Shown here piece after piece: positions 4,903 through 61,087 of a DNA stretch of 64,000 nt. The stretch is taken from the NCBI RefSeq assembly GCF_988243305.1, contig NZ_OZ547136.1, one strand, 5' to 3'. A model generated the notes under the pieces. That model was given only the letters and a program-made list of their open reading frames with translations, ran no database searches and was not told the DNA's origin. Position numbers and translations under genes: made by a program. Position 1 is the first letter of the stretch. Each line of letters opens with the position of its first letter.

Positions 4903-5723
4903 CAGCGCATACTCTCCAGCAGCGTTTCTGCCATTACCCACAATGCGCGGTTGAGCTTAATATCGGTGTCGATGCTGTGAATGGCACGGGTGTGGATACG
5001 TTTTCCTCTGGCACTGCGCCCGGAAATCCCCCCTTTCAGCATATTCTCCTGGATGGTCTGATAAGCACTCCACAGGTCCTTTCCGTAATCCTCCCGGCGT
5101 CGTGGCGTCAGAATGTCGGCGGTGGTGACGGGCTGATGTTCGTCACCATAACGGTAAGTCAGTGCCGCCTGTGCCAGCGCCTGGCGTGCCGGTGGCGGCA
5201 GGACCAGCGACTGCATGGCATCACGCTTCTCCTCTATCCGGTCAAAAACCCCCACCACCTCGTAAGCCCCTTCGATAACTTTCTCCACTACATTTCCCCG
5301 GTGCGGAACACGCACTTCCCCCAGAGACTGACCACAGACGCACCCGTTCTGGCAGACGAACCTGAAGTAACCCGGCAGCATCTGGTAGCTGGATGAACCG
5401 TCATGAGAGTTGAGCAGAATAATTTCAGGGACATGCTGACCGGTTATCTGTCCGGCCCGCCGCAGACGCAGCATGTGTTTTGTGTATTCCCGGCGACCCG
5501 GGTCACGCACACGTGTCTGGCAGGCGAAGAATGGCTGAAAGCCTTCCCGCTGCAGGCTTTCCAGTACGGTGATGGTGGGAATGTACGCATAGCGTTTACT
5601 GCGGGAAGTATGCCGGTCTTCACCGAAAATACTGGGAACATAGTGCATCAGTTCTTCGTGTGTCAGCGGACGGTCACGGCGTATCTGGTTTGCAGCATAA
5701 CCAAAACGACTGGCTAGTCGCAT
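4902..5723 (-). CDS. DUF932-family protein (YfjQ/YafZ/YkfF-like)
   Basis: 273-aa ORF with the recalled family signature (…EIILLNSHDGSSSYQ…); conserved CP4-type gene. Confidence 0.7.
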   Translation of the reverse strand: MRLASRFGYAANQIRRDRPLTHEELMHYVPSIFGEDRHTSRSKRYAYIPTITVLESLQREGFQPFFACQTRVRDPGRREYTKHMLRLRRAGQITGQHVPEIILLNSHDGSSSYQMLPGYFRFVCQNGCVCGQSLGEVRVPHRGNVVEKVIEGAYEVVGVFDRIEEKRDAMQSLVLPPPARQALAQAALTYRYGDEHQPVTTADILTPRRREDYGKDLWSAYQTIQENMLKGGISGRSARGKRIHTRAIHSIDTDIKLNRALWVMAETLLESMR

Positions 5724-6115
5724 AATTTGCTCCTTATCGGTGGTTAAGATTTACTGGTGTAATAAATGAAAAAGCCACGTCTCCCGGAGAAGACGCGGCC
5801 TGATGGACGAAATTAATGAGGTTTATTGTCTGAGAAGACCGTCACTGGCGAACCTTCCGGCGTCAGTCTCTGCGTTGCGGATAACCCGACGGAAATGAGT
5901 TCCCTGGTCATCGTCGATAAACACATTGCGGTAAGCTGTTGTGATGACAACAGCCTGCTCGCGTGAGAAAGGGACTTCGGGCAATAAACGTGACATACAA
6001 CCAGACCTGTATTTGGTTCCCTGAAAATATAAGTCCCTGTCATCATGGCAGAGCCGTATTTACTTTTGATATCAATAAATTAATAACGCGAAGATGAACC
6101 GCATAACTTACGCCT

Positions 6116-6379
6116 TTAATTTGTTTTGTTTACGTAGTCCCTGACCAGGTACGCGAATTCGTGAACGCCAGTTTCACCAAACCAAATCAGGTAACCAGGG
6201 TCGATGTTGTAATAGTAACCAACGACTTTATGCGTTTTTGGGTTATAGAGTGTTACGATATAGTCCCAGCCGCAGGCGTGGGCTTTACAACCGCCACCTT
6301 CTACCCAGGTCGTTCCGTTAATGTTTACAGGATACGCACCACCATCAGGACCATCCATATAGCCGTCTTCCCCAAACAT
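6116..6379 (-). pseudogene. Possible C-terminal remnant of a gene truncated by IS1
   Basis: 87-aa ORF whose upstream side runs into the IS1 end at 6547; no credible start. Confidence 0.25.
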
Positions 6380-6561
6380 TCCGTTTAACCCAACAGGGTT
6401 TAATGCTTTGTCGATAGCAGCTCTGTAGGTAGCGTCACCTTCGTATAACTCGTACGTTGTTGGACATGCACCAGGCTGGTCAGCCCGGGCTTTTGAGTCG
6501 CATTTAAGTGTCTGATTTACAGTGGCGGCGTTTGTGTCAGGACTTAGGTAATGACTCCAAC

Positions 6562-7065
6562 TTATTGATAGTGTTTTATGTTCAGATAATGCCCGATGAC
6601 TTTGTCATGCAGCTCCACCGATTTTGAGAACGACAGCGACTTCCGTCCCAGCCGTGCCAGGTGCTGCCTCAGATTCAGGTTATGCCGCTCAATTCGCTGC
6701 GTATATCGCTTGCTGATTACGTGCAGCTTTCCCTTCAGGCGGGATTCATACAGCGGCCAGCCATCCGCCATCCATATCACCACGTCAAAGGGTGACAGCA
6801 GGCTCATAAGACGCCCCAGCGTCGCCATAGTGCGTTCACCGAATACGTGCGCAACAACCGTCTTCCGGAGCCTGTCATACGCGTAAAACAGCCAGCGCTG
6901 GCGCGATTTAGCCCCGACATAGCCCCACTGTTCGTCCATTTCCGCGCAGACGATGACGTCACTGCCCGGCTGTATGCGCGAGGTTACCGACTGCGGCCTG
7001 AGTTTTTTAAGTGACGTAAAATCGTGTTGAGGCCAACGCCCATAATGCGGGCTGTTGCCCGGCAT
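6562..7065 (-). CDS. insB: IS1 InsB (expressed as InsAB' by frameshift)
   Basis: 167-aa IS1 transposase ORF overlapping insA. Confidence 0.9.
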
Positions 7066-7259
7066 CCAACGCCATTCATGGCCATATCAATGATTTTCTG
7101 GTGCGTACCGGGTTGAGAAGCGGTGTAAGTGAACTGCAGTTGCCATGTTTTACGGCAGTGAGAGCAGAGATAGCGCTGATGTCCGGCGGTGCTTTTGCCG
7201 TTACGCACCACCCCGTCAGTAGCTGAACAGGAGGGACAGCTGATAGAAACAGAAGCCAC
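6984..7259 (-). CDS. insA: IS1 InsA
   Basis: 91 aa, [23 protein letters not shown]… zinc-finger/HTH InsA. Confidence 0.9.
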
Positions 7260-7425
7260 TGGAGCACTTCAAAAACGCCATCATACACTAAATCAGTAAG
7301 TTGGCAGCATCACCTAAGTGCTTTTACGATGAATTTCATGATAACTCTCCTTATGACATTAATAAATGCGTTAATCTTAAATCTCACCCAGGTAATATAT
7401 ATCTGAAAATATTTTCAACAACACC

Positions 7426-12983: not shown

Positions 12984-13901
12984 TTATCTGGAATGTCGGT
13001 ACCTTTTATACTCTTCAACAATCAGGTCATGCAGCATTTCGCCGGTACTGAGTCTTCTGACCCTCGATAATTCTTTGAGCTGCGCCCTGGTTTCTGCGTC
13101 AAGAAAAAACTGTACATTGACTTTATCTTCCTGCATTTTTTTGTACTTGCGCTGCGCCTTGGCCTTATTGAAACTGTTTCTGAAATTTTTTATATCGTCA
13201 GGTGAGGTGAGTGTACAGGTAACCCATATGTCAAATGAAAGGTGAATTGCGTGGTAAATATCAGCAGAACCAGGAAAACTGGCCAGTTTTTCCAGTGCAA
13301 TATTTTTTCCCTTCAAATAATTCCATGTCCATATGCATTCATGTTCGTTCTCCGGGAGGAGGTAACTGAAAGGACTCTTTGATTTAAATGCCCGTATCCA
13401 TCTGTCTTTGGTCTGGATTATCCACTCATCCCGCAAATTCTTATCAGAAAGAATATCGAGAACTCTGAGTATTTGTCTGAACTGTGTCGATGAGTCCGAC
13501 GGGAAGGCATTCCCTTCTAAATACTCTTCTTTAAGATACAGTTTATTCTTTTGAAGCAAGTCTGCACTTATTTTTGCCCTGTTATTCTGGATAAACTGCA
13601 TCAACAGATACCAGGAAAATAAGCATGCGCGTTCACTGCCCGCGATCCAGGATATTTTTTCCAGGGGGACCAGGAAGGCCTGGGCCTTCAGACGCATACC
13701 AGAAATGATTTGTTCAAGTTCAAAATCTGAAAGTGTGATGTTCAGATTTTCTCTGTTTTTTTTTATGTAAGCGATAAAACGTTCCGGGGGATCATAAACA
13801 TTAAGGGGCAGTACGGAGATATTACGCTCTCCAAGATAATAAGAGTAATACGCATTTGTTCTTTCATTCATAACCTTATCCGACAAAATTTTCTGAACCA
13901 T
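12984..13901 (-). CDS. Hypothetical protein (305 aa), AT-rich, with C-terminal ribbon-helix-helix-like segment
   Basis: Long ORF with low-GC codon usage; C-terminus VQFFLDAETRAQLKELSRVRRLSTGEMLHDLIVEEY resembles CopG/Arc-type RHH. Confidence 0.55.
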   Translation of the reverse strand: MVQKILSDKVMNERTNAYYSYYLGERNISVLPLNVYDPPERFIAYIKKNRENLNITLSDFELEQIISGMRLKAQAFLVPLEKISWIAGSERACLFSWYLLMQFIQNNRAKISADLLQKNKLYLKEEYLEGNAFPSDSSTQFRQILRVLDILSDKNLRDEWIIQTKDRWIRAFKSKSPFSYLLPENEHECIWTWNYLKGKNIALEKLASFPGSADIYHAIHLSFDIWVTCTLTSPDDIKNFRNSFNKAKAQRKYKKMQEDKVNVQFFLDAETRAQLKELSRVRRLSTGEMLHDLIVEEYKRYRHSR

Positions 13902-17124: not shown

Positions 17125-17720
17125 GCGTTCGGTAATCACAACGGCATCGCGCCAGGTGTTATCCGCTTTGTGATTCTTATTGGCTCTTCTCAGGTTATTA
17201 AAAGCTGAATATGTTCCTGTTGTCGGGAACCAGGATAATGTCGGGAACGTTAAGCTGTATAACGACAACAAAGAATTCGAAATCAAAAGGGAATGGTGTA
17301 CGGAGGTGTGGACGGTAATGGGCCGATTTTCGGGCATTACCGACCTCTGCTGAGGTTTTCTCGTATTTCTGGGGATCCGGTGAGTTACTGTCACTGTCTG
17401 GCACAGCAAGCGCAGAGGCGGCGGGGCGCTTTGCTCCGCTGATTCCGGATAATTCCTCCCCTGTAACCTACCGCAACAGTACAAATACACTGACGCCTGA
17501 AACGACAGCCAGAATCAGCACAAGCCACAATCCCTGCACACCGTTTTGCGTATCACCATAACGCCTCCTCACAGCCTTACCCGTAACCGGTTTTTTACAT
17601 TAAAAAAACAACGCTGGGAATTCAATCGTCAGTCCGGAGACGACAGTCGGGTTATCACAGAGTGCCTGAGACAGTGTCCTGCCGGAGGTCACCTCAGGGA
17701 CTCTGCACATTTTTTACAGC

Positions 17721-18326
17721 GTGGCTATTCCGTATGAACCATACGGAGATTTAACCATGACCTACAAATACAACCCCTTCTGGCAGCAACGTATTCGTGA
17801 GACGGTGCGGCACGCACTGAATGTTCATCCCCGCCTGACGGCATTGCGGGTTGACCTGCGTCTCCCGGATGTACCGGCAGCAACGGACGCAGCTGTGATA
17901 TCCCGCTTCATCAATGCCCTGAAAGCCCGAATCGACGCTTACCAGAAACGTAAGCATCGGGAAGGTAAACGCGTGCATCCCACAACCCTGCATTACGTCT
18001 GGGCCCGGGAGTTTGGGGAGTGCAAAGGTAAAAAACACTATCACCTGCTGCTGCTGGTCAACCGGGATACCTGGTGTCGTGCCGGTGATTACCGCGCTCC
18101 GGGGTCACTGGCCGGGATGATTAAACAGGCCTGGTGCAGTGCCCTGGGAGTGGATGCCGGACGTTATGACACGCTGGCACATTTTCCGGTCAGGCCGGCG
18201 GTGTGGCTGGAACGCGATGATGACACCGGCTTTCAGCAGGTGCTGGAGCGTGCTGACTATCTGGCGAAGGAGAGTACCAAAGCTTACGGCACCGGTGAGC
18301 GCAACTTTGGCTGCAGTCGTGGCTGA
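17721..18326 (+). CDS. YagK/YfjJ-family (inovirus Gp2-like) protein with HUH-like motif
   Basis: HYHLLLLVN His-hydrophobic-His motif; family assignment from memory; start may be the internal Met at 17757. Confidence 0.55.
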   Translation: MAIPYEPYGDLTMTYKYNPFWQQRIRETVRHALNVHPRLTALRVDLRLPDVPAATDAAVISRFINALKARIDAYQKRKHREGKRVHPTTLHYVWAREFGECKGKKHYHLLLLVNRDTWCRAGDYRAPGSLAGMIKQAWCSALGVDAGRYDTLAHFPVRPAVWLERDDDTGFQQVLERADYLAKESTKAYGTGERNFGCSRG

Positions 18327-49321: not shown

Positions 49322-50503
49322 TCAGGTCTGCTCAGAAAGTGAATCAATGTAGTCAGCGTACCATTGCATCATTTCACGGCGACCATCGAGATACTGTGCG
49401 TGGTTATAGGTACCGCGCATGATGTTTTTATCAACATGGGCAAGCTGGAGTTCAATCCAGGCAGAGCTGAAATCATGGTCATGGAGAATGGTACTGAAAG
49501 TATGCCGAAAACCATGAGCTGTAGTGAATGTATGCCAGCCAACTTGTTGAAGAAACTCATTGATGCAACCACGGCTACGAGGTTGATTACCCCTGTATAC
49601 ACCAGGAATAACCAGATCTGAGTTACGGGGATTTGTGATTATTTTTATATCTTTCAATAACATTTGAGCCTGATGAGAAAGAGGAACAACATGCGGCCTC
49701 CGCATTTTCATTCTCTCTTTTGGGATTACCCAGAGGGCATTGGTAAAATCAATTTCATCCCAAGTAGCCAGGCGTAATTCTCCCGTTCGAACAGCAGTCA
49801 GAACCAGTATCCGCGTTACCAGAGACATAAAATTTCCTGAAACTTTCATTTGGTACATGAAAGCTCCTAACTGTTCTTCAGATAGCATCCGTCTCTGCTG
49901 TTTTTCAGGATGCAGAACAACACTGCTGAGAGTCGATGCTGGGTTAATAGTGGCGCGCCCCGTCGCAATGGCATAATCAAATATTTGAGAACAGAGCTGA
50001 CGAGTCTTACGTAACGCTTCAAGTTTGCCATTCCTTTCAATAACCCTCAGTGCATTCAATATTTCCAAGGGGCGAATATCAGCCACAGGACGCTTCCCTA
50101 GCGTGGGATTAATATGATTCTCGAATCTTGCACGCTGGTCCGCTAAATAACCCGCAGTCCAACGACAAGCCATATGTGTGAACAACTCTTCTGCAAGAGT
50201 ACAAAATGTGCATGCAATACTTTCTCTTAGTGCATGTTTACTCGCCTGTTTTTCATATGAAGGATCTTTTCCTTCAGCCAGGAGTTTACGTGCGTCATCC
50301 CGTTTCTGACGCGCCAGAGCCAGTGATATGCCTGGATAGACACCAATCACCAATTTCTTTTCTTTACCCGCAAATCGATACTTCAGATTCCAGTAACGAG
50401 CGCCAGATTTCTTGATAAGAAGGTAAAGTCCTTGACCATCAGAAAGTTTGTAATCCTTGTCAGCGGGTTTGGCCGACTCAATTTGTCGAACAGTAAGTGG
50501 CAT
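49322..50503 (-). CDS. int: Tyrosine integrase, P4-type
   Basis: 393 aa; N-terminal …KLSDGQGLYLLIKKSGARYWNLKYRFAGKEK… and C-terminal HGFRHTF…LAHVD…Y catalytic signature; 177 bp from the right junction. Confidence 0.9.
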   Translation of the reverse strand: MPLTVRQIESAKPADKDYKLSDGQGLYLLIKKSGARYWNLKYRFAGKEKKLVIGVYPGISLALARQKRDDARKLLAEGKDPSYEKQASKHALRESIACTFCTLAEELFTHMACRWTAGYLADQRARFENHINPTLGKRPVADIRPLEILNALRVIERNGKLEALRKTRQLCSQIFDYAIATGRATINPASTLSSVVLHPEKQQRRMLSEEQLGAFMYQMKVSGNFMSLVTRILVLTAVRTGELRLATWDEIDFTNALWVIPKERMKMRRPHVVPLSHQAQMLLKDIKIITNPRNSDLVIPGVYRGNQPRSRGCINEFLQQVGWHTFTTAHGFRHTFSTILHDHDFSSAWIELQLAHVDKNIMRGTYNHAQYLDGRREMMQWYADYIDSLSEQT

Positions 50504-50694: not shown

Positions 50695-51493
50695 GTGCTG
50701 GCTGGAACGCCTGCGACTGGCAAAAACGTTGGGCTTCGATTTTGTCGAGATGTCGGTAGATGAAACTGACGAGCGCCTGTCGCGCCTCGACTGGAGCCGC
50801 GAGCAGCGTCTGGCGCTGGTGAATGCGATTGTTGAAACCGGCGTGCGTGTGCCGTCCATGTGCCTTTCTGCCCATCGTCGTTTTCCGTTGGGCAGCGAAG
50901 ATGACGCGGTGCGGGCGCAGGGGCTGGAGATTATGCATAAAGCCATCCAGTTCGCCCAGGACGTTGGCATTCGCGTGATCCAGCTGGCGGGCTATGACGT
51001 TTACTATCAGGAAGTCAATAACGAAACGCGTCGTCGTTTCCGTGACGGCCTGAAAGAGAGCGTTGAGATGGCAAGCCGCGCGCAGGTGACGCTGGCGATG
51101 GAGATCATGGATTATCCGTTGATGAACTCCATCAGCAAGGCGCTGGGTTACGCGCACTATCTCAACAACCCGTGGTTCCAGCTCTACCCGGATATCGGCA
51201 ACCTGTCGGCGTGGGACAACGATGTGCAGATGGAGTTGCAGGCCGGAATCGGGCATATCGTCGCGGTACATGTGAAAGACACCAAACCTGGCGTCTTCAA
51301 AAACGTGCCGTTTGGCGAAGGTGTAGTGGATTTCGAACGTTGTTTCGAAACGCTCAAACAGAGTGGCTATTGCGGGCCGTACCTGATTGAGATGTGGAGC
51401 GAAACGGCGGAAGACCCGGCGGCAGAAGTGGCGAAAGCGCGTGATTGGGTGAAAGCGCGCATGGCGAAAGCGGGCATGGTGGAGGCGGCATAA
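50681..51493 (+). pseudogene. ulaE: ulaE 3' portion (L-ribulose-5-phosphate 3-epimerase lacking its first about 14 codons)
   Basis: Resumes …[24 protein letters not shown]…; in-frame stop immediately upstream in island sequence; first Met at 50729. Confidence 0.85.
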
Positions 51494-52179
51494 TGCAAAA
51501 GCTAAAACAGCAGGTATTTGAAGCCAACATGGAGCTGCCGCGCTACGGGCTGGTGACCTTTACCTGGGGCAACGTCAGCGCTATCGACCGCGAACGCGGG
51601 CTGGTGGTGATCAAGCCCAGCGGCGTTGCCTACGAAACCATGAAAGCGGCCGATATGGTGGTGGTTGATATGAGCGGCAAGGTGGTGGAAGGGGAGTATC
51701 GCCCATCTTCCGACACTGCGACGCATCTCGAACTCTACCGTCGTTACCCGTCGCTTGGCGGCATTGTCCATACCCACTCCACTCATGCCACCGCATGGGC
51801 GCAGGCGGGGCTGGCAATTCCGGCGCTAGGCACCACGCACGCCGACTACTTCTTTGGCGATATCCCGTGCACGCGCGGATTAAGCGAAGAAGAGGTGCAG
51901 GGCGAGTATGAACTGAACACCGGCGAAGTGATTATCGAAACGCTGGGTGACGCCGAGCCGCTGCATACGCCGGGGATTGTGGTGTATCAGCACGGGCCGT
52001 TCGCCTGGGGGAAAGATGCTCACGATGCGGTGCATAACGCGGTAGTGATGGAAGAAGTGGCGAAAATGGCGTGGATTGCGCGCAGTATTAACCCACAACT
52101 GAATCACATCGACAGCTTCCTCATGAATAAACACTTCATGCGTAAGCACGGTCCTAACGCTTATTACGGGCAGAAGTAA
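51493..52179 (+). CDS. ulaF: L-ribulose-5-phosphate 4-epimerase UlaF
   Basis: [45 protein letters not shown]… class II aldolase-type epimerase; start overlaps ulaE stop. Confidence 0.9.
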
Positions 52180-52248
52180 AACACGCGCTGCGGAAATTTC
52201 CTTCTTCGGGAGATAACTGGTCTAATTCCGCAGCCGTTTTTCAAAAAA

Positions 52249-52268
52249 AGCCCCCTGCGAAGGGGGCA
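52249..52268 (-). terminator. Intergenic hairpin terminator between ulaF and yjfY
   Basis: GCCCCCT-GCGAA-GGGGGC with a T-run on the minus strand. Confidence 0.5.
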
Positions 52269-52307
52269 AAGCAAACTATGGCAATGTTTCGTTGGTTATA
52301 CCTGGTG

Positions 52308-52583
52308 CTAGCGATAAATATCCGCGCTGGCGTGCATATTGCCGTTACTCCCCGGTTCCCGCATCAGAATTACGTGGTAGTACGTTGCGCCCTGCGCATC
52401 TGTTTCTTCATTTAATGCCTGACGTGCTTCACTTTCAGTGGCGAAATTATGATTGATATAAATCACGCCTAAGCTTTGCATATCGTCCATATTTCTGGCC
52501 TGGTGGTTATTGATTTCAATGGCTGCCCATGTATTTGCACTTAGCAAAAGCACAGCCAGAAGGGCTAAAACTCGACTGAACAT
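52308..52583 (-). CDS. yjfY: YjfY (DUF1471 periplasmic protein)
   Basis: Signal peptide MFSRVLALLAVLLLSANTWA; conserved position before rpsF. Confidence 0.8.
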   Translation of the reverse strand: MFSRVLALLAVLLLSANTWAAIEINNHQARNMDDMQSLGVIYINHNFATESEARQALNEETDAQGATYYHVILMREPGSNGNMHASADIYR

Positions 52584-52891
52584 AGATACCTCCTCGACGG
52601 CTGACTTTGTGTGCTCTCCTCTGTGATGATCTTCTGATTTAATTTTAATCAATGATAAAGAAGTTGATGGTGACCATTTCTGATGCAGTTGTTCAAAAAA
52701 ACACCATGATGAAGTGTGATGAACTCCAAATCAGCGGTTTAGAGGTTAATTGCGAAAGGGGAGATTTATTTCGGCTCTGCCCTTGAGTTTAGCGGGGCAT
52801 ACAAGTACTATAACGCGTCATTTTTCAGCCGACCTTTAACACGTTCCTTGCCTCCCCGGGATTCGGCTGACCCAGACAGGAGGCTGAATAA

Positions 52892-53305
<414 letters not shown>

Positions 53306-53311
53306 TTTCTG

Positions 53312-53858
<547 letters not shown>

Positions 53859-53887
53859 TCGGTCACGGTCCATTAATACGACTTTGA

Positions 53888-54349
<462 letters not shown>

Positions 54350-54370
54350 TTCGTTATTCAACGAGACGTA

Positions 54371-54397
54371 AAAACGCCGACCATTGGTCGGCGTTTT
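54371..54397 (+). terminator. rplI rho-independent terminator
   Basis: AAAACGCCGACC-ATT-GGTCGGCGTTTT perfect hairpin followed by a T-run. Confidence 0.8.
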
Positions 54398-54450
54398 GCT
54401 TTATAGCGAAAGCGTTACAACTGGTAGTATAACGCTCTGATATCTATTAA

Positions 54451-55267
54451 TTAGCTTGTCGCTAACTGTACTTGCGGTTCTTCATCTTTAACTTTGATAA
54501 GCGTCCACAGCGCAATGGCGCCAATAATGTCAAAGAAAGCCAGGGCAATAAAGAACGGCGCGAAGCCGATAATGTGAACGAATGCCCCGATAAACAGGTT
54601 GAAAATCAACTGACCGCTCCACGCACAGGCTCCTGCCATACCCACTGCGGTAGCTACTTCGTCTTTTTTGAACAGATCGCCACCCAGAGTTGCTGCTACA
54701 GTAGAAAGACATTGATGCGAGAACGCGCCAATACTAATCAGTAATACGGCAATGTAGGGATTTTCGACAATACTCACCAGGCCAATCGTCATCATAATGA
54801 CGGCTGCAATAGTGAAGGTAATTCTTCGTGAGTTAATTAAACTCACGCCGCGATCGTGGAAGAACTTCGCGACAAAACCACTGGCTAAACAGCCGAGATC
54901 GCCCAGCAGGAAAGGCAGCCAGACGAACATGGCAATTTCTTTCAGGCTAAAATGCAGCGTTTCGACGAAGAAAATCGGCACCCAGAAGTTAATGGTTCCC
55001 CATGCCGGGTCTGCGAGAAAACGCGCGATGCCAATCCCCCAGAAATTACGTTGGCTGAGGATATGCTTGATTGACGTTTTTTCTTTCTTATCTGTTTTAA
55101 GATGCTGTTCTTGTCCTGATTCAATATAGTGGCGCTCTTCATCAGAAAGGCGTTTGGCATCTTTCGGATCTTTATAACAAAAGAACCAAAATAAAGCCGC
55201 GAGCAAAGCAAGGCTACCTGAAACAATAAACGCAAATTGCCAGCTATGAAACATAATGCACCAGGCA
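54451..55267 (-). pseudogene. MFS transporter gene, 5'-truncated by IS1 (C-terminal about 276 codons remain)
   Basis: ORF with multiple TM segments runs directly into the IS1 end at 55268 without a start codon. Confidence 0.7.
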
Positions 55268-55282
55268 GGTAATGACTCCAAC

Positions 55283-55786
55283 TTATTGATAGTGTTTTAT
55301 GTTCAGATAATGCCCGATGACTTTGTCATGCAGCTCCACCGATTTTGAGAACGACAGCGACTTCCGTCCCAGCCGTGCCAGGTGCTGCCTCAGATTCAGG
55401 TTATGCCGCTCAATTCGCTGCGTATATCGCTTGCTGATTACGTGCAGCTTTCCCTTCAGGCGGGATTCATACAGCGGCCAGCCATCCGTCATCCATATCA
55501 CCACGTCAAAGGGTGACAGCAGGCTCATAAGACGCCCCAGCGTCGCCATAGTGCGTTCACCGAATACGTGCGCAACAACCGTCTTCCGGAGACTGTCATA
55601 CGCGTAAAACAGCCAGCGCTGGCGCGATTTAGCCCCGACATAGCCCCACTGTTCGTCCATTTCCGCGCAGACGATGACGTCACTGCCCGGCTGTATGCGC
55701 GAGGTTACCGACTGCGGCCTGAGTTTTTTAAGTGACGTAAAATCGTGTTGAGGCCAACGCCCATAATGCGTGCAGTTGCCCGGCAT
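55283..55786 (-). CDS. insB: IS1 InsB
   Basis: One amino-acid difference from the first copy (…VIWMTDGW…). Confidence 0.9.
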
Positions 55787-55980
55787 CCAACGCCATTCAT
55801 GGCCATATCAATGATTTTCTGGTGCGTACCGGGTTGAGAAGCGGTGTAAGTGAACTGCAGTTGCCATGTTTTACGGCAGTGAGAGCAGAGATAGCGCTGA
55901 TGTCCGGCAGTGCTTTTGCCGTTACGCACCACCCCGTCAGTAGCTGAACAGGAGGGACAGCTGATAGAAACAGAAGCCAC
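55705..55980 (-). CDS. insA: IS1 InsA
   Basis: Identical to the InsA of the first copy. Confidence 0.9.
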
Positions 55981-56099
55981 TGGAGCACCTCAAAAACACC
56001 ATCATACACTAAATCAGTAAGTTGGCAGCATCACCCTGGAAGCCAGACGTAAGGTCATCAAAGAGACAATCCTTAGCTGGCTTTTGGTTGACCCTTCAT

Positions 56100-56738
56100 C
56101 TACCGCGCACGAATAAAACTGCCATCCGGCTGGCGGGTGAACAGGACCTGTTGATTATTCCCCGTATCAATGGTTAAGCCCGTCACCACGCCGCTGGCGT
56201 TCTGGCGGATTTTCACCATTTGCCCGTTTTGCAAATTACTCAGCGGCTTACCCGCGCCTTCTACCTGCGCCATTGCATAGACATCGGTAGCGGGCAGTCC
56301 GTGGTCGCGGAACAGCTGCGCCATCGTTTTACCGGGTTCGACACGGTAAGAGCGCCATTGATTATCAATTCCGCTATCTGGCTGGAATGGTTGTGTTTGG
56401 GTAGTTTGCGGCTGTTCTTCTGGCTGGCCTTCCTGTATAGGTTCTGGAGCGACCGGAGCCACCTGATCAGGATCATTTTGTGGTGTGACTAATTGCGCCC
56501 GCAGCTGTTCTTCTGTCGGCGGTTGTGATTGCGACTGAATATCTAACTGCGCTTCACGCGTCACCACCGGCGCGTTGGGCGTATCATCAGATGGAAGCAG
56601 AAATCCGACCACCAATATAATGGCGGCAATAATGATCCCCCGACGATGCATCGGCGGCAGCGGGTCCATGAAGCGAAAATTGTCCGGCGCGTGCCAGACT
56701 TTCTCCAGGGTTGGTTTTAGTTCAAAGCGCCCGGGCAT
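56100..56738 (-). CDS. ytfB: Cell-division protein YtfB (OapA/LysM-like)
   Basis: [33 protein letters not shown]… with Pro/Gln-rich linker; conserved position before fklB. Confidence 0.85.
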
Positions 56739-56956
56739 GGTTTCCTCCTGCTCCGCGTCTTGTTCCTCAATCATAGCCTATGAATAAGCTAACGCTATGA
56801 TGTCCGTGGTAAACCCGCCTTTATTATATTCATACGGGATATTGCTATTGTTTCTTTTTCCCCGGGATTTGTCATCATTCCTGCGACAAAGTTTTACCCA
56901 AAGAAGTGTGGCTGATATGCTGCCCGCTACTTTTATACCCTAAGAAAGGAAATACG

Positions 56957-57577
56957 ATGACCACCCCAACTTTTGACACCATCGAAGCGCAAGCAAGCTA
57001 CGGCATTGGTTTACAGGTAGGCCAACAACTGAGTGAATCTGGCCTGCAAGGGCTGCTGCCGGAGGCGCTGGTGGCTGGTATTGCAGATGCGCTGGAAGGC
57101 AAACATCCGGCTGTTCCGGTTGATGTGGTGCATCGCGCGCTGCGTGAAATCCACGAACGCGCCGATGCCGTTCGTCGTCAGCGTTTCCAGGCGATGGCTG
57201 CCGAAGGTGTGAAATATCTTGAAGAAAATGCCAAAAAAGAAGGTGTGAACAGCACCGAATCTGGCCTGCAATTCCGCGTGATCAACCAGGGTGAAGGCGC
57301 AATTCCGGCACGTACTGACCGCGTTCGTGTTCATTACACCGGTAAACTGATCGACGGCACCGTGTTTGACAGCTCCGTTGCTCGTGGTGAACCCGCTGAA
57401 TTCCCGGTTAATGGCGTGATCCCTGGCTGGATTGAAGCACTGACTCTGATGCCGGTAGGTTCTAAATGGGAACTGACTATCCCGCAGGAACTGGCATATG
57501 GCGAGCGCGGCGCAGGCGCATCCATCCCTCCGTTCAGCACCCTGGTGTTTGAAGTCGAACTGCTGGAAATCCTCTAA
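56957..57577 (+). CDS. fklB: FKBP-type peptidyl-prolyl cis-trans isomerase FklB
   Basis: [25 protein letters not shown]…FEVELLEIL. Confidence 0.9.
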
Positions 57578-57885
57578 GCAGCGCATTCTGTTCCCCTCGA
57601 ACCAGAGGGGAGCAGGCATTCAGCAATAAACCCTTCAGTTTGCCAAACGGCGCTATTTTGTGTTGCAAAGACCCCGTAAGCGTGTATTTTTGTGAGCTGT
57701 TTCGCGTTATCACCGTGATATGACACTCACTTTAAACATAAAATTAACATTAGATCTAAATCTTAGTATTCATCCCGCGTATTGTTACCTAATATCGATG
57801 AGTCCCGATACAGATTCGTCGTATCATAGACTGACTAAAGGCCGTAGAGCCTGAACAACACAGACAGGTACAGGAAGAAAAAAAC

Positions 57886-59298
57886 ATGGTAGATCAGGTA
57901 AAAGTCGTTGCCGATGATCAGGCTCCGGCTGAACAGTCGCTACGGCGCAATCTCACAAACCGACATATTCAGCTTATTGCCATTGGCGGTGCCATTGGTA
58001 CGGGGTTGTTTATGGGGTCTGGCAAAACGATTAGCCTTGCCGGGCCGTCGATCATTTTCGTTTATATGATCATCGGTTTTATGCTCTTTTTCGTGATGCG
58101 GGCAATGGGGGAATTGCTGCTTTCGAATCTGGAATACAAATCTTTTAGTGACTTCGCTTCCGATTTACTCGGGCCGTGGGCAGGATATTTCACCGGCTGG
58201 ACTTACTGGTTCTGCTGGGTTGTAACCGGTATGGCAGACGTGGTGGCGATCACTGCTTATGCTCAGTTCTGGTTCCCCGATCTCTCCGACTGGGTCGCCT
58301 CGCTGGCGGTGATAGTGCTGCTGTTGACGCTCAACCTTGCCACCGTGAAAATGTTCGGTGAGATGGAGTTCTGGTTTGCGATGATCAAAATCGTCGCCAT
58401 CGTGTCGCTGATTGTCGTCGGCCTGGTCATGGTGGCGATGCACTTTCAGTCACCGACCGGTGTGGAAGCGTCATTCGCGCATTTGTGGAATGACGGCGGC
58501 TGGTTCCCGAAAGGTTTAAGTGGCTTCTTTGCCGGATTCCAGATAGCGGTTTTCGCTTTCGTGGGGATTGAGCTGGTAGGTACAACAGCTGCGGAAACCA
58601 AAGATCCGGAGAAATCACTGCCACGCGCGATTAACTCCATTCCGATCCGTATCATTATGTTCTACGTCTTCGCGCTGATTGTGATTATGTCCGTGACGCC
58701 GTGGAGTTCGGTAGTCCCGGAGAAAAGCCCGTTTGTTGAACTGTTCGTGTTGGTAGGGCTGCCTGCTGCCGCAAGCGTGATCAACTTTGTGGTGCTGACC
58801 TCTGCGGCGTCTTCCGCTAACAGCGGCGTCTTCTCTACCAGCCGTATGCTGTTTGGTCTGGCGCAGGAAGGTGTGGCACCGAAAGCGTTCGCTAAACTTT
58901 CTAAGCGCGCAGTACCAGCGAAAGGGCTGACCTTCTCCTGCATCTGCCTGCTCGGTGGCGTGGTGATGCTGTATGTGAATCCTAGCGTGATTGGCGCGTT
59001 CACGATGATTACAACCGTTTCCGCGATTCTGTTTATGTTCGTCTGGACGATTATCCTTTGCTCGTACCTGGTTTACCGCAAACAGCGTCCTCATCTGCAT
59101 GAGAAGTCGATCTACAAGATGCCGCTCGGCAAGCTGATGTGCTGGGTATGTATGGCGTTCTTTGTGTTCGTGGTCGTGTTGCTGACACTGGAAGATGACA
59201 CTCGCCAGGCGCTGTTGGTCACCCCGCTGTGGTTTATCGCACTGGGGCTGGGCTGGTTGTTTATTGGTAAGAAGCGGGCTGCTGAACTGCGGAAATAA
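57886..59298 (+). CDS. cycA: D-serine/D-alanine/glycine transporter CycA
   Basis: 470-aa APC-family permease matching CycA as recalled. Confidence 0.9.
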   Translation: MVDQVKVVADDQAPAEQSLRRNLTNRHIQLIAIGGAIGTGLFMGSGKTISLAGPSIIFVYMIIGFMLFFVMRAMGELLLSNLEYKSFSDFASDLLGPWAGYFTGWTYWFCWVVTGMADVVAITAYAQFWFPDLSDWVASLAVIVLLLTLNLATVKMFGEMEFWFAMIKIVAIVSLIVVGLVMVAMHFQSPTGVEASFAHLWNDGGWFPKGLSGFFAGFQIAVFAFVGIELVGTTAAETKDPEKSLPRAINSIPIRIIMFYVFALIVIMSVTPWSSVVPEKSPFVELFVLVGLPAAASVINFVVLTSAASSANSGVFSTSRMLFGLAQEGVAPKAFAKLSKRAVPAKGLTFSCICLLGGVVMLYVNPSVIGAFTMITTVSAILFMFVWTIILCSYLVYRKQRPHLHEKSIYKMPLGKLMCWVCMAFFVFVVVLLTLEDDTRQALLVTPLWFIALGLGWLFIGKKRAAELRK

Positions 59299-59342
59299 CC
59301 GCATTATCATGCTGGATGGCGCAATGCCATCCAGCTTTTAGA

Positions 59343-60005
59343 TTACTCACCCGCCAACGCGCGTGGGAACAGTACATTGTTTTCCAGACTGATGTGATCC
59401 ATCAGGTCATCAATCAGTTCATTAATGCCGTTATACATCGCTTTCCAGGTGGTGCAGGCTTCTGGCGGCGGTGTGACGTTATTGGTAGTGTGTTTGATCA
59501 CTTCCAGCAGTTCGCCCGCTTCATCGTGCTCGCTTTCCATTACGCTGATTGGCCCCATTGCCTGGCTGCCCATGCCTTGTTTGATCATCGGGAAGAGGAT
59601 CTGCTCTTCTTTCATCATGTGGCTGGAAAGCTCTTCATGCAGCATGGTCAGGTATTTTGTCAGCCCTTTTGGCACGCTCGGTTTGTCGGCGTGAACGCGC
59701 TCGACTTTAGTCGCTTGCAGGATCAGCTCCGGCAGTTGCTCGCGGTGACGATCGTGGTAGCGCACGATGATATGGTCGATGATTTCTGCCAGCGGGGCGC
59801 TACGCCAGTCTTTCTCAATCGGTTGTTCAGCAAGCTTTGCCAGCTCAGCTTCAATGACCTCAACATCCAGTTCTTTACGTGCCGCCGCACGCGCCAGCGT
59901 TTGCTTACCGCCGCAGCAGTAATCCATATCATATTTACGAAACAGAGCCGAAGCGCGAGGGATAGAGAGCGCCAGTTCACCTAAAGGTTGGTCGCGATAA
60001 GCCAT
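59343..60005 (-). CDS. ytfE: Iron-sulfur cluster repair di-iron protein YtfE
   Basis: [37 protein letters not shown]… hemerythrin-like. Confidence 0.9.
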
Positions 60006-60112
60006 AGCTGATACCTCATTCTTAATAAGATAAGATGTATTTTAAATGCATCTTTAAGGCAAATGCTATAACCCTTACGTAGCAGAGGCTTATTTAACTC
60101 ACTGCCAGTATG

Positions 60113-61087
60113 TCAACTTTCTGAGACAGATTCAGTTAAAGGCTTTTCCGGTTTTGCTCTGACTGCAATGACCACGCCAACCACTAACAGCGCGATACCG
60201 CTCAGCGTCATCAGCGGCGGCATTTGCTGGCGTATCAAAAAGGTGTACAGCAAACCTGCCAGTGTTTCGAAAACGATCAGCGGCCCGAGAATCACTGTCG
60301 GTAATCGCTGGCTGGCGACGTTCCAGCAGAGTGCGCCAACCCATGAGCAAAGCACGGCTATCGCAACCATCAGACTAATAAACACCAGCGGACGGGGGCC
60401 AAAAGGTAAGGAGAAGTCCGGCGTTTGTATATTCAGCCAGTAACAGGCGACGAGATAGCCGATGAGAGAAACCGGCAGCGTGACCAGCGCCTGCGCCGTC
60501 GCCCACATCATCGGATGTTTGTCGGGATTTTCCCGCAGCCAGCGGGCGTTGCGCAGGGCATACCATGCCCAGCAGACCACGGAAACTAACGCTAGCACGA
60601 TGCCAGAGGTATAACGTGCCCAGTCAAAATCGGGGAGTCCGTGGTTTAACTCAGCAATATTCACACACGCCAGGCCGATGCCAATACAAATCAGTGCCGG
60701 GGCGAGTTTTCCCCACGCGAGTTTGCCGTCGCGCTGGCTATAAAGCAGATTGGCAAAGACAGGAATGACCACCGGCAGGGTGCCAATAATCATCGTAGAA
60801 ACAGGCGCGCCAGTACGTTGAATGGCACTGGCAAGGCAGAAGTAATAGATGAGGTTGCCCATCATAGTGAGCATCAAGGCGGTAAGCCAGTCGCGACGCG
60901 CCAACTGACGCAGACGCACGCGTCCCAGCCAGGCAATGGGTAGCGCAATTAACCCTAACGCCAGATAACGCCCCATCGACTGCAACATCGCCGGGTATTC
61001 CGGCACGATCAACGGCCCGACAAAAATAAGCCCCCACATCAACCCTGCTAACAGGGCGTACAGCACGCCGCTAATCATTACTGGCAT
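60113..61087 (-). CDS. ytfF: Inner-membrane EamA/DMT-family transporter YtfF
   Basis: 324-aa polytopic membrane protein in the conserved position. Confidence 0.8.
   Translation of the reverse strand: MPVMISGVLYALLAGLMWGLIFVGPLIVPEYPAMLQSMGRYLALGLIALPIAWLGRVRLRQLARRDWLTALMLTMMGNLIYYFCLASAIQRTGAPVSTMIIGTLPVVIPVFANLLYSQRDGKLAWGKLAPALICIGIGLACVNIAELNHGLPDFDWARYTSGIVLALVSVVCWAWYALRNARWLRENPDKHPMMWATAQALVTLPVSLIGYLVACYWLNIQTPDFSLPFGPRPLVFISLMVAIAVLCSWVGALCWNVASQRLPTVILGPLIVFETLAGLLYTFLIRQQMPPLMTLSGIALLVVGVVIAVRAKPEKPLTESVSES

Follow-up and report, generated by a model that had tools for sequence, protein, structure and literature searches.

In the stretch of 64,000 nucleotides that we analyzed (the window), the interval between the genes rplI and ytfB holds an IS1 copy that cuts short an MFS transporter gene. 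This raises the question of what the interval contained before IS1 came to lie there, and of the route by which that content was lost. A sequence-only reading of the window had proposed an IS1-associated replacement or deletion, with the K-12 genes yjfZ and ytfA as the arrangement expected at this place. We therefore asked what the interval holds at present, what an intact relative holds in its stead, and which of several routes could lead from one state to the other.

Both genes that border the interval are intact. The first, rplI (53900-54349), is followed on the plus strand by an intrinsic terminator hairpin at ~54371-54397 (AAAACGCCGACC-AUU-GGUCGGCGUUUU, then a U-rich tail), with a minimum free energy of -25.3 kcal/mol and a z-score of -5.2 relative to shuffled sequences; a simple terminator scan made no call at this hairpin. 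Past the terminator, the 3' remnant of the MFS gene occupies the minus strand from 54451 to 55267 (817 of 1,278 nt, residues ~155-425), and IS1 begins at 55268, so that a C-terminal transporter fragment does abut an IS1 end here, as had been claimed. The IS1 copy itself, referred to below as IS1_b, extends on the minus strand from 55268 to 56035. It had also been stated that ytfB comes after the IS, which is correct as to order but not as to adjacency, because the last 81 bp of a TetR/AcrR gene (56036-56116, plus strand; 26 codons and a stop) lie between the two. This remnant overlaps the 3' end of ytfB by 17 bp, and a Pfam search found no domain left in it. The ytfB gene (56100-56738, minus strand), which encodes an OapA/LysM-like cell division protein (Pfam LysM_OapA and OapA_N), is 100% identical at the DNA level to that of E. 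coli L73. Since rplI and ytfB each have the 3' end toward IS1, both should be unaffected by it, and no polar effect is expected.

We compared this arrangement with the L73 locus (L001), which came up when the interval was used as a megablast query on a set of 5,426 complete E. coli genomes. Window positions 52001-55267 align to L001 9652-12918, and the alignment resumes on the far side of IS1 with 56036-58000 matching L001 20301-22265, the TetR remnant aligning from 20301 on. Relative to L73, the window is without exactly L001 12919-20300, or 7,382 bp, and IS1 sits exactly at the junction. Five genes are missing in their entirety; of the MFS gene, 461 nt are gone from the 5' end, and the TetR gene (648 nt) has lost 567. 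We found no differences from L73 over 53435-55267 and one over 56036-60653 (1 SNP in ~6.4 kb), and flanks this similar imply that the deletion is recent relative to point divergence. L73, the closest relative by flank sequence, carries the operon intact and free of any IS. Of the two possibilities raised by the sequence-only reading, an IS1-associated deletion is thus borne out, in that 7,382 bp present in L73 are missing here between otherwise near-identical flanks and without a target-site duplication, while a replacement is not, given that nothing was put in place of the lost DNA, which the comparison with L73 reveals as the operon allele.

In L73, this allele consists of a six-gene catabolic cluster on the minus strand and a divergent, full-length TetR regulator gene, and the comparison shows it to be the ancestral state of the rplI-ytfB interval of the window. 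The cluster is headed by the MFS transporter gene (L001 12102-13379), and its other products are a FAD-dependent oxidoreductase of the fumarate-reductase/aspartate-oxidase type (690 aa, FAD_binding_2), a fused family-I CoA-transferase (513 aa), an enoyl-CoA hydratase, a xylose-isomerase-like TIM-barrel protein and a short-chain dehydrogenase/reductase (SDR). The regulator gene (L001 19734-20381, 648 nt) overlaps ytfB with its 3' end. Judging from these protein families, the pathway probably took up an organic acid and broke it down in a CoA-dependent, beta-oxidation-like manner, and the transporter types encoded at the locus (an anion:cation-symporter MFS or, in other strains, a TRAP transporter) seem to point to a carboxylate as the substrate. 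With the transporter truncated and the enzymes and regulator gone, the strain would have lost this pathway. Our search of the literature found no published function for the operon, and for the interval it yielded only ytfA, as a variably present gene.

What is left of the transporter gene is collinear with the full L73 gene (1,278 nt) up to L001 12918, and its 400 bp next to IS1 show 100% identity to L001 12519-12918. A minus-strand open reading frame can be drawn over 54451-55281, of which only 54451-55267 is transporter sequence; the final 14 nt, with the TTG start, are derived from IS1. The remnant matches Pfam MFS_1 only at profile positions 148-287 of 347 and TIGR00893 at positions 145-398 of 399, which falls short of a 12-helix protein with a complete MFS_1 domain and a start codon of its own. 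Because the promoter, the start codon and the N-terminal ~154 of 425 residues are missing, the remnant is a pseudogene, of the anion:cation-symporter type.

The IS1 copy at the junction is of the IS1A type and has features by which we recognize the IS1 family, namely, a length of ~768 bp (here 768 bp), imperfect inverted repeats of ~23 bp, and insA and insB' with an A6C site. Its terminal repeats, IRR at 55268-55290 and IRL at 56013-56035, are identical at 18 of 23 positions (GGTAATGACTCCAACTTATTGAT versus GGTGATGCTGCCAACTTACTGAT). The insA gene (55705-55980; Pfam Zn_ribbon_InsA and HTH_Tnp_IS1) and insB' (55283-55786; Pfam DDE_Tnp_IS1) both lie on the minus strand, as does the A6C motif AAAAAAC (55723-55729), the -1 frameshift site that joins them. 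The element is 100% identical to the RefSeq-annotated IS1A (programmed frameshift) of strain S1-CAM-01-C, and it is predicted from its sequence to be intact and active. At its left junction, AACATAATGCACCAGGCA is joined to GGTAATGACTCC, and at its right junction, GCAGCATCACC is joined to CTGGAAGCCAGACG. We found no target-site duplication, the 9 bp on the left being CACCAGGCA and those on the right CTGGAAGCC; the sequence-only reading had suggested looking for duplications, and when both IS1 copies of the window were compared at their flanks, neither had one. An element that brought about a deletion, or was subject to one, should have no duplication; its absence speaks against a simple insertion but leaves the identity of the element as IS1 untouched. 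Among IS copies that lack duplications, the documented causes are mainly adjacent deletions and IS-IS recombination (PMC11708052).

We put the probability of an association between IS1 and the deletion at roughly 0.9. For the specific route, we lean, at somewhat better than even odds, toward an IS1 insertion followed by a transposase-mediated adjacent deletion. Under this route, an IS1A copy would have inserted into the operon locus, and intramolecular replicative transposition would then have linked an end of the element to a new target site elsewhere on that DNA molecule. The intervening DNA would have left as a non-replicating circle carrying a second IS1 copy, while the chromosome would have kept a single IS1 without a target-site duplication. 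We infer both the order of these events and which IS1 end moved. Reif and Saedler are said to have described the classical IS1 gal deletions in 1975, and IS1 replicative deletions were reportedly treated by Turlan and Chandler in 1995. Like those classical adjacent deletions, the window has one intact IS1 at the junction, no duplication and a deletion that begins at the IS1 terminus, and the kilobase-scale extent is typical as well; in contrast to them, no pre-deletion simple insertion was found, and the two endpoints share 7 bp.

The adjacent-deletion route makes predictions that can be looked up in other genomes. An IS at a deletion junction, seen against an intact relative and lacking a duplication, is what the window presents. 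If IS1 had first inserted in the MFS gene, a simple insertion with GCAGCATCACC joined to CACCAGGCAATCAACGG should have existed, and if it had first inserted in the TetR gene, one with CCAGGCACTGGAAGCC joined to GGTAATGACTCC. We found a simple IS1 insertion at neither window junction among the 5,426 complete E. coli genomes, so that a junction shared with a pre-existing simple insertion is missing from this set, which counts against the route. Nor did any of these genomes give a single-piece match to either exact IS1 junction, and an exact k-mer scan for the left IS1 junction returned nothing from the GTDB species representatives or the JGI metagenomes. The nearest event was in strain UID2309220015, a simple IS1A insertion 6 bp from the right junction of the window. 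The 7-bp identity of the two breakpoints, CCAGGCA, is also not predicted by the adjacent-deletion model.

On the other side of the balance, what appears to be the same process can be seen at this locus in natural isolates. We mapped the junctions of other finished genomes onto L73 and found IS1 there in the same orientation as in the window. LR-27 carries a simple IS1B insertion (left end at L001 13191, right start at 13184) with an 8-bp duplication, CCATTACC. From the same left position, 13191, P276M continues at 17535 (a 4,343-bp deletion), E308 at 17967 (4,775 bp) and C21 at 20200 (7,008 bp), each of them with IS1B. These four strains thus have one identical junction between IRR and the MFS gene, and the deletions extend from the IRL end. 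A nested series with a fixed junction is the mark of adjacent deletions that are one-ended and transposase-mediated. The fixed junction reads CATTACC/GGTAATG (the slash marks the joint), so that the flanking sequence is the reverse complement of the end of IS1. The locus offers an unusually clean natural series of one-ended IS1 deletions, which might be of use in teaching or in studies of endpoint choice.

The IS1B series resembles the window in affecting the same operon, in IS1 orientation and in the order of MFS remnant, IS1 and downstream remnant, and C21 comes closest, with an endpoint in the TetR gene 101 bp from that of the window. However, the element of the series is IS1B, 98.8-99.0% identical, its left junction is at 13191 rather than 12918, and the right junction of C21 is at L001 20200 rather than 20301. 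The remaining events all involve IS1A. S1-CAM-01-C (left 13167, right 17998; 4,830-bp deletion) and PEC389 (left 13287, right 17912; 4,624-bp deletion) are further independent IS1-flanked deletions, and the insertion of UID2309220015 (left 20303, right 20295) lies in the TetR gene with a 9-bp duplication, CAGGCACTG. The window (left 12918, right 20301; 7,382-bp deletion) has no junction in common with the IS1 events of the other strains, and we therefore regard its deletion as an independent event. We also considered whether the locus is an IS1 hot spot or under selection for IS1 events and set the idea aside, since ~10 IS1 copies per 5 Mb, taken over 8.4 kb and ~2,700 operon-bearing genomes, give by rough reckoning a number of the same order as the dozens observed.

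An alternative to adjacent deletion, possible although a good deal less probable, is that two IS1 copies inserted in the same orientation, one at the MFS target CACCAGGCA and one at the TetR target CTGGAAGCC, and that RecA-dependent recombination between them excised 7.4 kb together with one IS1. This would yield exactly the flanks that we observe, with one duplication represented by its left copy and the other by its right copy, and the same final sequence is predicted as by adjacent deletion. Both regions are also hit by IS1 in other strains. When we searched with the MFS remnant, IS1, the TetR remnant and the end of ytfB as one query, a single match place covered at least 80% of it in 47 complete genomes, which places IS1 close to this MFS segment in them, and 16 genomes have IS1 near the TetR/ytfB end, including the insertion 6 bp from the right junction of the window. 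Recombination nevertheless requires two independent same-orientation insertions within 7.4 kb before it can act, and neither insertion was found at its exact site among the complete E. coli genomes. It leaves the 7-mer unexplained, and the nested natural series displays one-ended extension from a single IS1 at this very locus.

The shared 7-mer raises the possibility of a third route. In the intact sequence, CCAGGCA lies directly to the left of both breakpoints, at L001 12912-12918 and 20294-20300, and one copy is retained at window positions 55261-55267. The MFS gene reads ATGCACCAGGCA up to its breakpoint and ATCAAC after it, and the TetR gene reads CCCCCCAGGCA up to its breakpoint and CTGGAAGCC after it. 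The 7-mer contains a Dcm site (CCAGG). A full enumeration of the 8.9 million breakpoint pairs that the locus allows gave an identity of at least 7 bp on either side at a frequency of 1.9e-4, or a corrected P of ~1e-3 for the six IS1-flanked deletions inspected; the five others at the locus have a breakpoint identity of only 0-1 bp. The coincidence may be due to chance.

It is also conceivable, although doubtful, that the deletion arose by annealing of the two CCAGGCA copies and that IS1 was captured in the break or gap without a duplication. If IS1 is disregarded, the junction is a perfect 7-bp microhomology junction (P = 1.9e-4), a short direct repeat is present at both endpoints with one copy kept, and IS1 comes directly after the retained repeat with no duplication. 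However, this is a single observation made post hoc, with the corrected P of ~1e-3, and none of the five other IS1 deletions here has such microhomology. The junction is also not free of foreign DNA, as 768 bp of IS1 stand between the repeat and the right flank. A truncation that predates the IS, as the sequence-only reading had pointed out, should turn up in relatives without IS1, and it did not: when IS1 was cut out of the query, no place in the 5,426 complete E. coli genomes matched at 80% coverage or more, and the 30-mer that joins CACCAGGCA to CTGGAAGCC had no match in the GTDB species representatives or the JGI metagenomes. This IS-free junction is thus missing from every collection searched. 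We know of no mechanism that has been shown for the entry of IS1 into deletion breaks. That ISs may enter rearrangement breaks without a duplication ("IS at centre of deletion") has been proposed from laboratory events with IS5 and IS481 (PMC11708052). If it were true of the window, microhomology capture would make the window a natural IS1-family example of IS insertion into rearrangement breaks; in any case, a 7-bp microhomology under a duplication-less IS1 is a small data point on whether ISs enter such breaks.

Several other accounts of the 7-mer were tried and rejected. Slippage of one duplication copy against the TetR repeat, other registers of the duplication, end-joining on the terminal bases of IS1, and a shared IS1 target consensus all predict a retained repeat or flank that the window lacks. 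Adjacent deletion in either direction and IS1-by-IS1 recombination likewise do not predict a 7-mer in this position.

An assembly artifact, in which the operon still lies between two IS1 copies that were collapsed as a repeat so that the unique 7.4 kb was skipped, is very improbable even though IS copies are a classic cause of collapses, because the sequence of the window is unbroken across both of its IS1 copies and across other repeats (IS3 and IS66 family elements, a group II intron), which argues for a finished or long-read assembly, and because equivalent deletions occur in several independently finished genomes.

The operon allele is common. Of the 5,426 complete E. coli genomes, 2,715, or about half, contain the 8.4-kb L73 segment over at least 80% of its length. 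Roughly 1,688 of these operon-bearing genomes have the MFS gene of the window, and others have a TRAP transporter instead; in some, yjfZ or a HipA toxin-antitoxin module lies between rplI and the transporter gene. The remaining genomes, K-12 derivatives included, have yjfZ and a 402-bp TetR remnant, the "ytfA" of K-12. The rplI-ytfB interval is accordingly multi-allelic, occurring as operon with MFS, as operon with TRAP, as either of these with yjfZ or with the HipA module, and as yjfZ with a TetR remnant. The remnant of the K-12 type is often split by IS609/TnpB.

That K-12 has yjfZ and ytfA at this place, as the sequence-only reading had it, we could see in the K-12 derivative C600, where "ytfA" lies at L005 4637-5038. 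This arrangement was not what the window lost, however, the ancestor having been the operon allele and K-12 representing a different operon-less state. Like the window, the K-12 allele has no operon and only a 3' TetR remnant beside ytfB; unlike the window, it keeps 402 bp of the TetR gene, has yjfZ rather than an MFS remnant and lacks IS1, with IS609 in many strains. The K-12 allele is older and widespread, and the state of the window does not descend from it. ytfA has been described as a variably present TetR-family gene (PMC6790063). By sequence comparison, the K-12 "ytfA" is a 402-bp remnant of the gene for the operon's TetR regulator. The comparison has some value for annotation, as "ytfA" is what remains of a regulator whose seven-gene operon is still present in half of E. 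coli.

The event in the window is of an ordinary and already known kind, IS-driven loss of an accessory operon. IS-driven gene loss is known from lineages of E. coli and Shigella that are rich in IS elements, and the window is similar to these in that an expanding IS1 population removes an accessory catabolic operon and a pseudogenized transporter remains; it differs in that its flanks are near-identical to those of a commensal-type E. coli, L73. We regard the case as a routine example of insertion-sequence genome decay, with little wider significance.

Two open reading frames can be drawn in the transporter remnant, and we compared both with a protein collection. The TTG-started, 276-aa chimera of MFS and IS1 sequence had no exact match there. 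An ATG-started ORF of 267 aa had exact matches only on contigs in which a nonsense codon at W156 interrupts the full MFS gene; it is listed in 188 blocks of the collection, and these contigs represent a different allele, with the HipA toxin-antitoxin module. Codon W156 sits within the breakpoint 7-mer (window ~55259-55261). It has become a stop independently in two other lineages, by TGA in L003 and by TAG in L004 (gene at 5527-6804 in both). The TAG is the change expected from deamination of 5-methylcytosine at a Dcm site, and that both stops turned up is partly a selection effect of querying with the exact 267-aa ORF.

The window holds a second IS1 copy, IS1_a (6547-7314, minus strand), which is flanked by CAGGACTTA and TAAGTGCTT without a target-site duplication. 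The sequence-only reading had described two direct IS1 copies about 48 kb apart; the orientation and the spacing stand (the starts are 48.7 kb apart), whereas the first copy ends at 7314 rather than 7315. The interval between the copies does contain, as described, the integrase gene (49322-50503), ulaE'/ulaF and rpsF-priB-rpsR-rplI. Inversion variants, for which a check of long reads had been suggested, do not fit this arrangement, because the copies are direct repeats and recombination between them would give a deletion instead. The gene rpsR is essential. Recombination between IS1_a and IS1_b would delete it, and viable variants of this kind are therefore not expected. The two elements are 99.1% identical (7 differences), and when we cross-matched their flanks for a reciprocal exchange, they shared no 9-mers. 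IS1_a and IS1_b have different histories.

IS1_a is located inside an island of ~50 kb (590-50680) in the 5' end of ulaE, with flanks at 1-589 and from 50681 onward; the window starts inside ulaD (3-524). The integrase gene, of the P4-type tyrosine class and on the minus strand, marks the right edge of the island, and an integrase adjoins ulaE in other E. coli strains too. At the position that corresponds to IS1_a in a related island of E. coli BR1220, there is an annotated IS1A. That IS1A adjoins a truncated hypothetical gene, and the BR1220 island lies beside setC, not in ulaE. In the window, the island flanks overlap by 14 bp of L73 (L001 8332-8345), a direct repeat or att-like duplication. 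The ulaD flank of the island is only 93.9% identical to L73, and to the right of the island there are 63 differences to L73, all but two of them at 50715-52803. This clustering suggests that flanking DNA may have been imported together with the island.
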